NCBI GenBank assembly: GCA_050290185.1
Contig: JBNKHE010000006.1
Span: forward strand, 128,001 to 192,000
Length of the DNA stretch: 64,000 nucleotides
Reading direction: 5' to 3'
From: Pontiella sp.
GTDB lineage: Bacteria > Verrucomicrobiota > Kiritimatiellia > Kiritimatiellales > Pontiellaceae
Part shown: positions 24,001-30,000 of the stretch, piece by piece
How the letters are laid out: every line of letters begins with the position of its first letter
Numbering within the stretch: the first letter of the stretch is position 1
Made by a program: the position numbers

Positions 24001-27000
24001 AAAAGCGGATGGCACGCATGCCGAGAAACGGGTTGGCCTCGCTGACGTGCGAATAGTAGGAGAGCATCTTGTCCCCGCCGATATCCAGCGTGCGGAAGGT
24101 TACGCTTCGGCCTACCATCTGATCCACCAGCTTCTTGTAGATCAGATACTGCTCCTCCTCGCTCGGGAAGTCGGTGCGCACGATAAACGGAAATTCGGAG
24201 CGGTAGAGCCCCACGCCTTCGGCCTTGAACTTATGGGCAGGCTTGAGGTCGCTCAACAGATTGATGTTGGCATAGATATGCACGCGTTCACCGCATTTTG
24301 TCAGGGTTTTTTCCTGCACGTCGGCGGCATCGTGCAAGGCTTGCCAGGCCTCATCCAGCTCCTTGTATTTGCGCTGGACCTCGTCGGTTGGTTCGAGATA
24401 GATAATCCCCTGCTCGCCATCGACCAGCATCTCGATGCCTTCCTCGATGGCATCGGCCTCCTCGCGGCTGATGGAGACCATGGGGATACCCAGTGAGCGG
24501 CTGATGATGGCGTTGTGCGAGGTTACCCCGCTACTGACAATGAAGCCCTCGACGTTTTCGGCCGACAATTTAAGGATATCGGACGGCAGCAGCTCGTGAG
24601 CGATGATGATCTGGCCGCGATAGTCGCAGGCGTCGGCTTCCTCATTGAGCAGGTTGCGCGTAAGGCGGGTTCCCAGGTCTTTTACGTCGATCACCTTTTC
24701 GCGAATCATCGGCATCTTGCTTTTGGAGAACACCTCGACATATTCGTTGACCACTCCCGCAATCGCCTTAACAGCAGGCGTGCCGGTTTCAATCAGGCCG
24801 GCAATGCGGCCGGTAAACTGCTTATCCTCGAGGATGAGCAGGTGGGCGCTGAAAATGAGTACGGCGACGTCGGCCAGCTCGGTCGAGGTCTGGCGCTGCA
24901 GTTGCTCGATCTGGCGCATCGTTTTATCGAGCGCCTTGTTGAAATCATCCAGGGTATGCGGCGACGCATCAGGGTCGGGCAGCAGGCAGGCATCGGCATC
25001 GTTTGCATCCAGCGTACAGGCCCGCCCCCGGGCCGTTCCCGTGCTCGCAGCCCGCCCCCGCAGGATGTCCCCCTTGCCCATCTTCCTGATGGCCGGCGCC
25101 TCTTCTACCAGCGCCCGTTCGCGAACCTCGCTCAACAGCTGGACATTCTCGATCATCGTCGCCAGCTGGGCCGCAATGGCCCGCAGAGCCTTCACGTCGT
25201 TCGGGGTAAAATAGTTGGTTTCCTTCGCCTGGACCACCAGAGCGCCGATTCTTCTCAAACCGCGAAGGATCGGCACGGCCAGAAACGCTTCGTATTCCTC
25301 TTCATGAATGCCCGGGAAAAACTTGTAGGAGGCGCTCTTGGAGGCGCTCCCAACGCAGATGGGGCGCAATTCACGGATCGCCCGGCCGGTAATCCCCTCC
25401 CCCACGGCCAGCTTGACGGTTCCAATGGCGCCTTCATCCAGGCCCTGGGTGGCGCGCAGGGTCAGCTCCTTGTGCTCCTCGTCATAAATGTAGATCGAGC
25501 AAACATCGGCCTGCATATGCCTGGCAACCGTCGTCACCACGGTTTGCAACAACACCTTGCGGTCCTGTCCTTCTTCGGCCAAGGACATCAGCTCGGCGAT
25601 ATCGCATACGAGATCTACATTCCGTTTTTTCATATGTCTCCAACTCACTTAACAGGGTAACAGCATATCCGGCATTTCGAGGCGTGTCAAAAAATAGAGA
25701 TTGTCCAATTTACGAATCGACCTTGCCCAACGCCTTCCCTACTATTTTGTCCTTAAAAAGCCGGAAATTCTATGAACAAGCCCTCTGCAGAAAAGCTGCT
25801 CGAAATCTACCGTTCCATGATCGCCTCGCGCTATACCGACCAGTTGCAGTCGGCCGCCGCGCAAAGGGGCGAAGTTTTCTTCTATATTCCTTCGTCCGGG
25901 CACGAAGCCAGCGCCGCGCTCAACGCGCACCTGATCGGGGCCGACTGGCTGCACCTGCACTACCGCGACCGCGCCCTGGCCTACGCCCGCGGCGTCACGT
26001 ACGAATCCGTATTCTACGGCCTGTTCTCCAAAGAGGAATCCAATTCCGGCGGCCGGCGCATGCCCGCCTTCCCGTGCGATCCCGAATTGAATATACTGAG
26101 CACCCCGACTCTGGTCGGAAGCAACGTGCTGCAGGCGGTCGGCGTGGCATCGGAAATCAAAGATCTGGACGGCAACCCGTTCGTGACGGTATCGGTCGGC
26201 GACGGAGCCACCCAGCAGGGCGACTTCTACGAAGCCATCGCCGAGGCCGTCCGCGCCAACCTTCCGGTGCTGTTTCTGATCGAGGACAACCGCTTTGCGC
26301 TTTCCACCGTGACCAAAGGCAATACCTTCTACTCCCTGCCCGGCGGGGAAACCGAAAGCTTCTACGGCCTGCCCATTCACCGGGTTGACGGTAGCGACGC
26401 CATGGCCACCTATGAAACGTTTGGCGACGTCGCTTCAACGATTCGTGCATCGCGCGGACCGCAGATTGTGGTCTTCAACGTCGAGCGGCTCGAAAGCCAC
26501 ACCAATGCCGACGACCAGTCCATGTACCGTACCGAGGCCGACCTGAAACATGCCAAGGACAATGCCGACCCCTGCGCCCGCCTGCGCGAAGCCATGCTGG
26601 CCGACGGCATTGACGAGGCACAGGTTAAAGCGATCGAGGACGAGGTCAAGGACGCCATCGACGCGGCTTTTCACACCGCCCGCAAGGGAACTACGCCCAA
26701 GGCGAGCCTTACGGCCAAGAAACCGCTTCCCGAACCGCGCGTGGAATACCGCGGCACCGATGACGCCCGTACCTTGAGCATGCTCGAAGCCATGCGCGAG
26801 GCCCTCAAGGCCCGCCTGGCGAGCGACCCACGAACCTCCTTGCTCGGGCAGGACATCGAAGATCCAAAGGGCGATGTCTTCGGTCTCACCCGCGGTTTGA
26901 GCAAGGCATATCCCGATCAGGTCCACAATGCGGCGTTAGCCGAAAACACGATTCTCGGCGTCTCTACCGGTCAGGCGCTGGCCGGCGGCCATCCCGTCGC

Positions 27001-30000
27001 CTTCATGCAGTTTGCCGACTTCCTGCCGGTGGCCTACAACCAGATCCTTTCCGAAATCGGCGCCATGTACTGGCGGACCAACGGCCAGTGGGAAGCGCCC
27101 GTGCTGATGATGTCGATCTGCGGCGGCTACCGTCCGGGCCTCGGCCCCTACCACGCCCAAACCATGGAATCGATCTGCGCCCACGTCCCGGGCGTCGATG
27201 TCTTTATGCCTTCGACGGCCGCCGACGCCGCCGGCCTGCTCAACGCCATTTCCGAATCGGGACGCCCGTCGGTCTTCCTCTTCCCGAAGAGCCTGATCAA
27301 CGACCGCACCAACACGACCTCTGCCGATGTTGAAAAGCAGTATGTGCCCATCGGCAAGGCACGAATCACACGCACCGGACAGGATATTACCCTCGTGAGC
27401 TGGGGCGGATCCATGCCGGTATGCGAACGCACGGCCGAAGCCCTTGCCGAAACCGGCATTAACGCTGAAATCATCGATCTGCGCACCATCTTCCCGTGGG
27501 ACGAGGAAGCCGTATTGGCCTCCGCGAAAAAGACCGGCAAGCTCGTTATCGTGCACGAAGACAACCAGACCGCCGGCATGGGCGGCGAAATTGCGGCCAC
27601 CATCGCCGAACGCGCCGGTAACGCGGTACAGATCGCCCGCGTCACGCGGCCCGATACCTACATCCCCTACGACTATTCCTGCCAGATCGAGGTGCTGCCG
27701 TCCTACAAGCGCACCCTCGAAAAGTGCTGCGAGCTGCTCGACATCGACATTCATTGGGATAAGCCCGTGGAAGAGGAAGCCGGAACCGTCACCGTCAAGG
27801 CGATCGGCTCCAGCCCGTCGGACGAAACCATCACGATCACCAGCCTCCCCATAAGCGTCGGCGATACCATTGCCGAGGGCGATCTGATTGCGTCGGTTGA
27901 AGCCGACAAAGCGTCGATGGATATTTCCGCCCCGGTCAGCGGCACGATTTCGGAGTTGCTTGCAGAAGAAGGCGATGTGCTACGCGTCGGAACACCGATG
28001 GTCAGGATTGCATCCGACGAGGCGGCCCAGCTGAAGCCGCTGACCAAGGAAGATCCCGGCACCCCGGTCATGGAACGCCGCCGCGCGGCTGAAGCACAGC
28101 CGGCCCCGGACAGGAGCGATATCCATCCCGCCCTTTCAAACTCCATATACATTTCCAATATCGCCACCGTCTTTGGCTCGCGCCACCTCACCAACGACGA
28201 GCTGCTGCAGGGCCATGGCGAATGGGATTCGGAAGCGATCCGCAAGCGAACGGGCATCGAAAACCGCTACTGGATTGACGGAGATGAAAACGTGCTGTCG
28301 CTGGCGGTCAAAGCCACCCGCAACCTGCTTGCAAAGGAACAGCTCCACATTTCCGATATCGGCGCAATTATCTGCTCAACCGGCACGCCACTGGTCATGA
28401 CGCCTTCGCTGGCCTGTAGCGTTCTGCACGAACTCAGCCCGGAAAAGGGCGAAGTACTGATGCAGGCACATGACGTCAACGCCGCCTGCTCCGGCTACAT
28501 GTATGCCCTGCAGTCGGCATTCGACTTCCTGACCAACGCCCCCGACAAGAAGGTGATTGTCATCACCGCCGAAACGCTCTCGCCCATGGTCAACCACGAT
28601 GACCAGAAAACCATGGCCCTGTTTGGCGATGCAGCGACGGCATCACTGGTCAGCTGCGAAAAACGTCCGGGCGATATCGGCGTCAAACTCAACCGCCCGG
28701 TACTCTCTGCAACGGGCGTGGATGCAAAGGTCCTCTATGTCCCGAACATGGGCAGCGGCGAAGTGATCGAGATGGAAGGGCTGACCGTCTTCAAGCTGGC
28801 CGTGCGCAAAATGATCGACATGCTCGACCTGGCCTGCCAGGAACGCGGCATCACGGTCGAGGATCTGCAGAAGATCGTGCCGCACCAGGCCAACGAACGC
28901 ATCATCGAGGCCATCCGCAAGACGATCAAATGCCCGTCGGAAAAGATGTTCAACCATATCCGCAAGTACGGAAACACCTCGTCGAACACGATTCCGATCG
29001 CGCTCGCCGAGCTGGTCCCCGAACTGGACTCCGACACGCTGATCGGCCTCACCGCCTTCGGCGGCGGATTCACCTTTGGCGCCGCGGTGATCGAGAAGGT
29101 TTAGATTTCCTTCGTAATCCAGGGCTTACCGCGCTTGAAGCTTTTGAATTGCATTTCATACAGTCTTCGAATCTCAGCTTTGGAGTCCGTCGAAGCATCC
29201 AATACTTTCTCCATGATTTTGGATGCCGCAGTAAAATCGCCACTTCTGGCATATGCACACGCCAACAGGCTCTGCGCTTCGTGGTCATTAGACTCACGAG
29301 TGCCAACCAAAAGCTGGGCATATTTCAGCGCTTGTTCTGCATCCCACAATGCAGAATCATTGGCACACGCATAACATTGTATTAATGATTTGCAGGCAGA
29401 GATGTTTCCGACATCGGCAGCGCGCTCCCACCACGTGATCGCTTCAGCCATATCCACATACCTATGCGAAAGGTTCCCGATCTCGTCTGCATAGTTTGAC
29501 AAGGGATTCAGCTTGTAGGCCTCATGGTAGATCTCCAACGCCAATAATCCTTTTTTAGGCAAATGACTTCCTGTCTCAAACTTCACAGCCTCATCAGCCA
29601 GCGCCTTGGCTGTTGCCTCCCTGCCAGACTTATCCTTATTCTCAAGGATTCTCAGGTATGCGCCCATATTGTTATCGAATTCTTTGACTTTTTCCTGAGC
29701 CTCCGAATGCCCTTTGTAGGCAGCAATCCGGAAAAGGAAATAGGCGGTGCGAAGGCTGCGTTTCTGATTGTTTATATTCGTAATTTGACAATCGCTACAG
29801 CCAGGACAATCCGGACTGCAGTACCTTTTTGTCACATCTGAAAAACCAGTCATGTACTTCTTCGCAAGCTCGAATGCGGATTCCGCAGAGTTTTGCAGTA
29901 AATAGTACCTTACCGTTAACTCTCCAGGCATCTGGTTCCACATGTCATGTCTTTCGTAATATTCACACAATGAATCCAAGCACTTATGGGCGGCCTCCAG

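Follow-up and report, generated by a model that had tools for sequence, protein, structure and literature searches.

A single-chain E1-lipoyl-KAS III fusion in Pontiella as a candidate CoA-independent primer synthase for branched fatty acids

Gene, domains and genomic context

In this work, we analysed a gene on the forward strand of a Pontiella sp. window (i.e. the whole stretch of 64,000 nucleotides under study) that joins on one chain the alpha and beta halves of a thiamine diphosphate (ThDP)-dependent E1, a lipoyl domain and a FabH-like ketoacyl-ACP synthase III (KAS III). Translation of 25772..29104 (+) yielded one open frame with an ATG start and no internal stop, in agreement with the fused 1110-aa frame described by the survey. 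Domains were assigned using Pfam and NCBIfam. The Pfam matches, all six exceeding their cut-offs, were E1_dh (13-310), Transket_pyr (335-509), Transketolase_C (528-635), Biotin_lipoyl (689-746), ACP_syn_III (901-967) and ACP_syn_III_C (1022-1108), i.e. exactly the boundaries reported earlier. The E2 acyltransferase core, said by the survey to be absent, indeed gave no match in this protein at E<=0.01 (2-oxoacid_dh), nor did the E3_binding domain (PSBD). The AlphaFold2 model of the whole protein had a mean pLDDT of 90.7 and a pTM of 0.68.

The E1-alpha-like ThDP-binding part (aa 1-320; 25772..26731, +) matched PF00676 at 4e-44 and has 1um9_A as its best solved relative (2.4e-41), while the E1-beta-like part (aa 335-656; 26774..27739, +) carries PF02779 and PF02780 and matched 1um9_B at 4.5e-59. 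Alignment to 1w85_A equated His243 with His271 of the 1w85 alpha chain, and alignment to 1w85_B equated Glu391 and His461 with Glu59 and His128 of the beta chain. The lipoyl domain follows (aa 668-747; 27773..28012, +; PF00364 at 3.7e-16), with its lipoyl lysine K713 (codon 27908-27910) in the DKA motif at 712-714. Finally, the KAS III condensing domain (aa 792-1110; 28145..29101, +), recognised by PRK09352, holds Cys906 (codon 28487-28489) in AACSG (904), His1038 in HQAN (1038), Asn1068 in GNTS (1067) and Arg1043. With GDG at 143, every motif listed by the survey was thus found in its place. Residues G143, N173, H243, E391, H461, K713, C906 and N1068 were invariant in 50/50 aligned family members, and the position of K713 was a lysine in 44/45 proteins of a wider set. 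As judged from these alignments, the catalytic residues of every domain are intact.

The alignment to PRK09352, the NCBIfam FabH model, begins at residue 792, so that the linker from the lipoyl domain to the KAS III domain (aa 748-791; 28013..28144, +) spans about 45 residues. The Ala/Pro-rich linker of about 80 residues proposed by the survey was therefore not recovered; in place of a plain Ala/Pro spacer, we found a semi-conserved motif, K755-P-x-T-x-E-x-P-G-x-P765-(V/I)-(I/L/M)-x-R-R, in which P765, T758 and E760 were present in 45/50, 28/50 and 27/50 aligned members, respectively. The model places a strand at 764-769 and drops below a pLDDT of 50 only at 772-788, where disorder is predicted. 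Only about 17 flexible residues would thus separate the two domains, which counts against a direct hand-off, since the arm would need to get to the E1 site as well as the KAS III site, in cis or across a dimer.

Two neighbours are given as context only: an ilvC-like ketol-acid reductoisomerase gene 4 kb upstream of the fusion (20157..21785, -; KARI_N and KARI_C), whose product acts on the path to 2-oxoisovalerate, and a divergent LysR regulator gene (21752-22717, +; LysR match). An ilvC gene also lies 2-4 kb from the fusion at loci L051 and L057; this proximity may be plain synteny. As the survey had noted, a normal FabH is encoded in a canonical plsX-fabH-fabD-fabG-acpP-fabF block, which we located on another contig of the same genome.

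Distribution of the family and related architectures

A search with residues 620-960 returned 1084 proteins at E<=1e-10. Among the best 120 of these, 105 were 1090-1120 aa long with all domains, and named sources included Pontiella desulfatans, P. sulfatireligans, strain S94 and Kiritimatiellales MAGs. The E1alpha-E1beta-lipoyl-KAS III architecture was common to 38 representatives of 50%-identity clusters. It was carried by 28/301 sampled genomes of the phylum, including 7/7 of the same genus and 9/9 and 5/5 in two other families, and the family further occurs in one Spirochaetaceae MAG and one cyanobacterium. The fusion is thus a conserved family, as the survey had held, and no artefact. Our literature search found no published description of an E1-lipoyl-KAS III fusion.

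A tree built on the E1(-lipoyl) region grouped all 45 KAS-type rows inside one clade of 50, in which lipoyl-only proteins, a protein ending in an E2 core (P0156) and one ending in a thioesterase (P0161) were also nested. Single-chain E1-lipoyl-E2core proteins make up the sister clade. Proteins of this kind (e.g. P0309 from Leptospirales, P0156 and P0189), both those in the sister clade and those inside the KAS-type clade, share with the fusion the E1alpha/beta-lipoyl scaffold and the lack of a PSBD, but their C-terminal acceptor is a classical E2 acyltransferase instead of a KAS III, and would deliver the acyl group to CoA or to a downstream ACP. As the tree shows, the acceptor domain on the E1-lipoyl scaffold is interchangeable, i.e. 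KAS III, E2 core or thioesterase. One relative, P0129, has the order E1-lipoyl-KAS III-KR-ACP, an extension that would be expected if the KAS III product were a 3-oxoacyl thioester on ACP. In two others, P0199 and P0190, an E2 core is followed by ACP.

The presence of relatives inside PKS-like proteins (the KR-ACP of P0129; the ACP-KS-MT-C-A of P0190, an E2-core form) could mean that the fusion primes a specialised lipid or polyketide rather than bulk membrane fatty acids, and the score of its KAS III domain under the fabH cut-off of TIGR00747 points the same way. We regard this as very improbable, given that no biosynthetic cluster was found around the fusion gene in 19 loci, where the neighbours are housekeeping genes, that none of the sampled genomes of three families lacks the fusion, as would hold for a core gene, and that cultured carriers have iso-even bulk lipids.

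Comparison of the KAS III domain with free-standing FabH

The KAS III domain scored 268 bits against PRK09352 (cut-off 249) and 226 bits against TIGR00747 (cut-off 292). It belongs to the same fold family as free-standing KAS III enzymes such as E. coli FabH (solved FabH structures, 1hn9/1hnd, 2ebd and 1zow among them, matched at 1e-31 to 1e-46), and has in common with them the catalytic triad (Cys-His-Asn), the residues of the pantetheine tunnel and R249. We compared 45 fused domains with 19 free-standing FabHs, i.e. that of E. coli, that of the same genome and 17 from the phylum. Fifteen positions separated the two sets, seven of them within segments 26-32 and 148-154. According to PMC4606726, T28, W32 and R151 of FabH grip the CoA adenine; these residues were invariant in the 19 free-standing enzymes, whereas only 1, 2 and 1 of the 45 fused domains, respectively, retained them. 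The loop around residues 195-199 was deleted in all fused domains (45/45). The position of E. coli F87 was Thr in 27/45, versus Phe in 16/19 canonical FabHs, a replacement which we take to widen the primer pocket.

The triad, by contrast with the CoA-adenine residues, was kept (C112 in 45/45, H244 in 44/45, N274 in 45/45), and so were the tunnel residues M207 (42/45), G209 (44/45), F213 (35/45) and N247 (39/45). The ACP-docking R249, to which Arg1043 of the fusion corresponds by residue comparison, was Arg in 41/45 and Lys in 3/45. We conclude from this pattern of substitutions that the CoA-adenine site is selectively lost, with the triad and the ACP-docking Arg retained. R36, a pantetheine-phosphate contact, was retained in 25/45 fused domains and is neutral in this respect. 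Against such a loss, Trp occupies position 28 in 18/45 fused domains, one helical turn from position 32, and might partly stand in for W32.

The retained residues also bear on the reaction catalysed. FabH enzymes have an acyl-CoA:ACP transacylase side activity, KAS III-like acyltransferases exist, and P0199 and P0190 illustrate lipoyl-to-ACP loading within the superfamily; the domain could accordingly act as an acyltransferase only, moving the acyl group from lipoate to holo-ACP and leaving the first condensation to FabF/FabB. This appears quite improbable: dedicated KAS III-like acyltransferases usually lack the Cys-His-Asn triad, the decarboxylation His (44/45) and Asn (45/45) are conserved here together with the C-terminal G-G-G-F-T motif, and the KR that directly follows the KAS III in P0129 needs a 3-oxo product.

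Proposed route and nature of the substrate

In Bacillus, Staphylococcus and Listeria, a branched-chain 2-oxoacid dehydrogenase complex (E1alpha2beta2/E2/E3) feeds FabH via acyl-CoA. The fusion resembles this arrangement in its alpha/beta-type ThDP E1, in the lipoyl arm as first acyl acceptor, in a KAS III that would condense a branched primer with malonyl-ACP and in the re-oxidation of lipoate by E3; it differs in being a single chain without E2 core, PSBD or CoA-adenine site. A second parallel is found in QncN/QncL/QncM-type systems, and also SclQ1-4, in which, as described in PMC6335953, a C2 unit destined for an NRPS is placed on ACP by an E1-like ThDP enzyme together with a lipoyl/E2-like acyltransferase. 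There too, an E1-lipoyl pair loads an assembly line, with a non-CoA carrier finally receiving the acyl group, but the transfer to ACP is made by an E2-type acyltransferase, whereas in the fusion the ketosynthase itself would accept and condense the acyl group.

The lack of E2 core and PSBD, the single chain and the lost CoA-adenine site together indicate that an acyl-CoA intermediate is probably skipped, and the fusion would then probably start branched fatty acids directly from a 2-oxoacid without CoA. We infer the following transfer steps, substrate and use of E3. The fused E1, probably a homodimer mimicking alpha2beta2, would decarboxylate the 2-oxoacid with ThDP and reductively acylate the lipoyl-Lys713 arm of the same chain. 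The S-acyl-dihydrolipoyl arm would enter the C-terminal KAS III through its pantetheine tunnel and hand the acyl group to Cys906. Malonyl-ACP, docked at Arg1043, would be decarboxylated through His1038 and Asn1068, the resulting 3-oxoacyl-ACP would join the ordinary FAS II cycle, and a free dihydrolipoyl dehydrogenase (E3) would re-oxidise the arm. In the Pontiella-like lineage, 2-oxoisovalerate would most likely give 3-oxo-4-methylpentanoyl-ACP and iso-even fatty acids, while straight chains would be started by the canonical FabH. On balance, and with moderate confidence, we favour an E2-less, CoA-independent primer synthase for fatty-acid synthesis, acting in this lineage likely on 2-oxoisovalerate; if true, this would be a CoA-free route from a 2-oxoacid to a branched fatty-acid starter.

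The CoA-free and E2-free hand-off put forward by the survey is favoured by the loss of the CoA-adenine residues, the exchange of acceptor domains and the KR-ACP relative, and is weakened by the free E2 cores found in 27/28 carrier genomes. In the genome studied here, aceE and aceF form a pair, and E2, E3 and E1alpha/beta are encoded in one operon. A free E2 could thus take the acyl group from the lipoyl arm and make acyl-CoA for use by the fused KAS III or by the canonical FabH, the fusion providing mere proximity. We consider this improbable, since the fusion lacks the E3/E1-binding (PSBD) domain for joining an E2 core, both free E2s of this genome adjoin their own E1, no E2 core was found in one carrier of 97% completeness, the nested relatives needing an E2 core have it in cis, and the CoA-adenine residues are absent from 43-44/45 fused domains.

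Direct hand-off as favoured here could also operate on another 2-oxoacid (pyruvate, 2-oxobutyrate or other), giving acetyl or other primers and not specifically isobutyryl. No curated equivalog model assigns a substrate to the E1 of the 1110-aa protein, and this tempers the case for the 2-oxoisovalerate named by the survey; the top NCBIfam E1 matches were to PDH E1 models (alpha and beta), none of which reached its cut-off. The best solved relatives of the E1 halves include both branched-chain E1 (1um9, from T. thermophilus) and PDH E1 (1w85, from G. stearothermophilus), and the family reaches the Spirochaetaceae MAG and the cyanobacterium mentioned above. Against these points, 1um9 ranks first for both halves (145 and 203 bits, versus 106 and 173 for PDH E1), the F87 position is mostly Thr in the fused domains but mostly Phe in canonical FabHs, and iso-even acids are abundant in cultured carriers, all of which makes another substrate unlikely, if a choice to be reckoned with.

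Iso-even fatty acids derive from an isobutyryl primer. The major fatty acids of P. desulfatans and P. sulfatireligans (both fusion carriers), P. agarivorans, T. aerotolerans and K. glycovorans are i-C12/14/16/18:0 and straight even acids, and K. glycovorans has neither odd-numbered fatty acids nor anteiso-C15:0. Such a profile of only iso-even and straight even acids in cultured Pontiella and Kiritimatiella fits an isobutyryl primer, and here the survey's substrate agrees with lipids of Pontiella itself as well as with those of another genus. Two points count against the hand-off: i-C14:0 is also made by bacteria of other classes (PMC5148204), and every fusion carrier has one or more additional KAS III matches, so that another source of isobutyryl-CoA with a canonical FabH could explain these lipids. 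Regarding partner enzymes, E3, LipA and LplA/LipB were all found in 5/5 carriers tested, and a lipoate ligase/transferase gene adjoins the fusion in 2/19 loci.

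Architecture and conservation of the fusion protein

The fusion gene (25772-29104, + strand) forms a single open frame with an ATG start and 1110 codons. Its product (P0001) carries the domain order put forward in the survey's finding, i.e. E1_dh (13-310), Transket_pyr (335-509), Transketolase_C (528-635), Biotin_lipoyl (689-746), ACP_syn_III (901-967) and ACP_syn_III_C (1022-1108), all above their Pfam cut-offs. The motifs listed there were likewise all found in place: GDG at 143, D712-K713-A714 in the lipoyl domain and the KAS III triad Cys906, His1038 and Asn1068. The lack of an E2 core (PF00198) also held, with no Pfam match at E<=0.01, and an E3-binding domain (PF02817, PSBD) was not found in the fusion at the same threshold. 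The protein differs in this from a complete 2-oxoacid dehydrogenase complex, its lipoyl domain having neither PF00198 nor PF02817 attached; it belongs to the E1 alpha/beta family, without the E2 core by which a dehydrogenase complex is defined.

The stretch linking the lipoyl domain to KAS III had been put at ~80 residues; since the PRK09352 alignment spans residues 792-1108, we assign it only ~45 residues (748-791). It includes a semi-conserved motif, K-P-x-T-x-E-x-P-G-x-P-(V/I)-(I/L/M)-x-R-R (28034-28084, + strand; aa 755-771), in which P765 is kept in 45 of the 50 family members. The fusion was modelled with AlphaFold2 using a 50-row family alignment (mean pLDDT 90.7, pTM 0.68); residues 764-769 were modelled as a strand and pLDDT fell below 50 only at residues 772-788. 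The motif may serve to dock E3, E1 or KAS III. A complex prediction between KAS III (785-1110) and the lipoyl domain (662-752), performed with 50-row alignments for each and without controls, gave a score of 0.00 against a mark of 0.32. Promoter and terminator scans gave chance-level matches only; this stretch is contained in four DNA sequencing runs, which may be its source, and no RNA sequencing run containing it was listed.

A search with residues 620-960 bore out the earlier claims of a conserved family (1084 proteins at E<=1e-10) and of same-length homologues, 105 of the best 120 being 1090-1120 aa long with all domain families. Named members belong to Pontiella desulfatans, P. sulfatireligans, strain S94 and Kiritimatiellales MAGs. 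The recurrence of this length on more than 100 independent contigs led us to reject an artefact of assembly or frameshift. An exhaustive search among 50%-identity cluster representatives added 38 representatives with this architecture, 37-52% identical along their full length; according to source names, members also include a Spirochaetaceae MAG and the cyanobacterium Anthocerotibacter panamensis. A description of the fusion was not found in the PMC/bioRxiv literature searched. Five candidates for a natural split form, i.e. a free fused-type KAS III beside an E1-lipoyl gene (P0210, P0269, P0224, P0226 and P0252), were discarded as fragments on short contigs; a metagenome scan with P0210 returned only distant relatives (32-42% identity).

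Active sites and loss of the acyl-CoA site in the fused KAS III

The E1 part is of the alpha/beta (heterotetramer) type, with PF00676, PF02779 and PF02780 above cut-offs. Residues G143, N173, H243, E391, H461 and K713 are invariant in the 50 sequences of the family alignment; against the solved Geobacillus stearothermophilus PDH E1 (1w85), H243 falls on His271-alpha, H461 on His128-beta and E391 on Glu59-beta. We take these three, a catalytic Glu in the beta part and two His of the active site, to serve ThDP activation and reductive acylation of lipoate. The lipoyl domain matched PF00364 at 3.7e-16 and has its Lys in a D-K-A turn; a biotin carrier was rejected on this motif, which is D-K-A, not M-K-M, with S-K-S or T-K-S as family variants.

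Among solved structures, both E1 halves come closest to the branched-chain 2-oxoacid E1 of T. thermophilus (145 and 203 bits) and next to PDH E1 (106 and 173 bits); no curated equivalog cut-off was reached by the fusion E1. With PDH E1 so close behind, the substrate is not fixed by sequence; the same hand-off starting from another 2-oxoacid is therefore an alternative to be kept in mind, although an unlikely one, the branched-chain enzyme being the nearer relative of both halves.

The KAS III comparison covered 45 fused domains and 19 verified free-standing FabHs (those of E. coli and of the Pontiella genome studied, and 17 from the phylum); five of the 22 extracted free-standing frames (L096, L097, L100, L102 and L103) had been left out as wrong frames before counting. 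The fused domains have kept the catalytic Cys, His and Asn in 45, 44 and 45 of 45 cases, respectively. Position 249 in E. coli FabH numbering (R1043 in the fusion), presumably the ACP docking residue, is Arg in 41 and Lys in three of the 45, and the tunnel residues are largely retained (M207, 42/45; G209, 44/45; F213, 35/45; N247, 39/45). By contrast, T28, W32 and R151, invariant in all 19 free-standing FabHs, are kept in only one, two and one of the 45 fused domains; in the fusion itself they are replaced by W, A and Q. According to an excerpt of PMC4606726, the CoA adenine in FabH is hydrogen-bonded to Thr28 and stacked between Trp32 and Arg151. Fused and free-standing domains are cleanly told apart by 15 positions, seven of which fall in segments 26-32 and 148-154, and the loop at ~195-199 is deleted in all 45 fused domains. 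Trp occurs at position 28 in 18 of them and might partly substitute for W32. Position 87 is Thr in 27/45 fused domains and Phe in 16/19 canonical FabHs, and Thr in place of Phe there opens the primer pocket in the M. tuberculosis enzyme. Against curated models the fused KAS III scored 268 bits with PRK09352 (cut-off 249) and 226 bits with TIGR00747 fabH (cut-off 292); the canonical FabH of the same genome scored 443 and 420. The fused domain belongs to the KAS III fold family and, compared with FabH, has lost the defining acyl-CoA site.

This loss bears on a route via a free E2 and acyl-CoA. Free E2s do occur in the genome studied, which is 95.5% complete and encodes aceE-aceF as well as an E2-E3-E1alpha/beta operon (L012 6520-11702, on contig C5 of G000), and they sit with other E1s. 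The E1alpha/beta of that operon is itself fused (876 aa, of which ~200 extend the N-terminus), lies below every curated equivalog cut-off and is 25% identical to the fusion E1. A detour through such an E2 appears improbable: the fusion has no PSBD, the CoA site is gone, and one carrier genome (G065, 97% complete) has no detectable E2 core (PF00198), with E3, LipA and LplA/LipB present. The genome studied likewise holds two E3s above the curated cut-off together with LipA and LplA/LipB, and the last two were found in all five carriers tested, an indirect sign that K713 may carry lipoate.

We infer a direct hand-off as the most likely mechanism, with a confidence slightly better than even. E1 would decarboxylate 2-oxoisovalerate and acylate lipoyl-K713, the arm would deliver the isobutyryl group to Cys906, condensation with malonyl-ACP would give 3-oxo-4-methylpentanoyl-ACP, and a free E3 would re-oxidise the arm. 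The fusion would thus work like a Bkd complex plus FabH from which the E2/CoA step has been cut out, and it resembles QncN/L/M-type systems in that ACPs are loaded there from a lipoyl arm, as described in an excerpt of PMC6335953. If true, this would be the first case of a condensing enzyme fed by a lipoyl arm, and 2-oxoacid and amino-acid metabolism would be linked to lipid synthesis in a new way, without passing through the acyl-CoA pool. Present designs for branched fatty acids require several genes for a Bkd complex as well as an exchanged FabH; if the direct hand-off holds, a single gene together with lipoylation and an E3 would provide them in engineered hosts.

Acceptor domains on the E1-lipoyl front end

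The same E1alpha/beta-lipoyl front end was found with a range of C-termini. An E2 core follows it in P0156, P0189, P0191, P0197 and others, including P0309 of Leptospirales; the E2 core is joined to an ACP in P0199 and to ACP-KS-MT-C-A in P0190 (2895 aa), through which a 2-oxoacid would be loaded onto a PKS/NRPS line. P0161 ends in a thioesterase, P0159 in a 244-aa C-terminus of no known type, and P0171 of Piscirickettsia litoralis and P0186 have no domain after the lipoyl domain. In P0129 (1942 aa), KAS III is followed by KR and ACP and by ~260 C-terminal residues without a domain match; this protein has the look of a mini-PKS that is complete in itself and takes its primer from a 2-oxoacid. 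Its KR speaks against a KAS III that only transfers the acyl group to ACP, as do the retained His and Asn of the fused domains, and we regard that reading as quite improbable.

A tree of the E1(-lipoyl) part (72 rows) was inferred with FastTree; with SH-like support and a root placed only at the midpoint, it does not establish which way the domains were swapped. All 45 KAS-type rows lie within one clade of 50 (support 87), with an inner node of 47 rows at support 100, and the sister of this clade is the E2-core type. Nested inside the KAS-type clade are P0156 with its E2 core (support 98), P0161 and P0159 together (thioesterase and 244-aa C-terminus, support 99) and the two proteins that stop after the lipoyl domain (support 100 for each). 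The exchange of C-termini on a common E1-lipoyl scaffold and their nesting in the tree therefore place KAS III in the slot of the lipoyl-acyl acceptor.

We consider the odds evenly balanced for a broader proposal, in which a protein-bound lipoyl arm, rather than CoA or ACP, would be the acyl donor to the ketosynthase and E1alpha/beta-lipoyl would be a general, portable loading module turning a 2-oxoacid into an enzyme-bound acyl group. Evolution would have plugged this module into KAS III for fatty-acid priming, into the KAS III-KR-ACP and E2core-ACP-PKS/NRPS of assembly lines and into a thioesterase for free acids, and one gene would set the unusual iso-even-only lipids of Kiritimatiellia. 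With its swappable acceptors (KAS III, E2 core, thioesterase, PKS), the family would offer a natural experiment in modular enzyme evolution.

Lipids, distribution and genomic setting

Iso-even fatty acids derive from an isobutyryl primer, i.e. from 2-oxoisovalerate. The fusion is present in both P. desulfatans and P. sulfatireligans, for which an excerpt of PMC7356697 gives C18:0, i-C12:0, i-C14:0 and i-C18:0 as major fatty acids, with i-C16:0 in one of them. A profile similar to that of both species is reported for P. agarivorans and T. aerotolerans in an excerpt of PMC10880615; for K. glycovorans, an excerpt of PMC5148204 gives i-C14:0, C18:0 and i-C18:0, with no odd-numbered acids and no anteiso-C15:0. 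If true, the direct hand-off would explain the iso-even-only fatty acids of a whole bacterial class.

Within the phylum, 301 genomes (300 plus the one studied) were sampled, using a match spanning the lipoyl/KAS III junction as criterion, and 28 were carriers. They comprised all genomes of the same genus (7/7), of a second family (9/9) and of a third (5/5), one of one in each of four families, one of five in another and both genomes of a family of another class. Non-carrier genomes with a match had canonical FabH-type matches only, and at least one additional KAS III match was present in all 28 carriers; in the genome studied, the canonical plsX-fabH-fabD-fabG-acpP-fabF block noted in the survey was indeed recovered.

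The fusion gene looks monocistronic. Upstream and divergent from it lie genes for P-II and for an Enzyme I with a GAF domain (PtsP-like, nitrogen PTS; 22823-25648), a neighbour also found in P. sulfatireligans, and 4 kb upstream an ilvC-like ketol-acid reductoisomerase with a divergent LysR regulator in an ilvY-like arrangement (20157-22717). A convergent Sel1/TPR gene lies downstream, as does a NERD-domain protein (31830-32783), after which comes an mreB-mreC-(169-aa ORF)-PBP2-rodA-RNase G-aldose epimerase block (33015-41571). The fusion might also serve a specialised product, which we judge the least probable of the alternatives given this housekeeping context and the core-gene distribution.

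Across 19 diverse loci, no conserved operon was found around the fusion. Besides the window itself, ilvC lies within 2-4 kb of it in two of the 19 loci, and a lipoate ligase/transferase gene stands beside it in two. The latter are distant carriers, in which the lipoate-protein ligase/octanoyltransferase gene is located directly upstream of the fusion (L062 4778-5854) or three genes upstream (L123 13859-14665). Close to the fusion, ilvC, amtB and P-II are seen again in two Pontiellaceae loci besides this one. Finally, the genome studied carries a type III polyketide synthase-like gene (L015 5889-7055, contig C1), whose DpgA-like match reaches 183 bits and stays under the cut-off.
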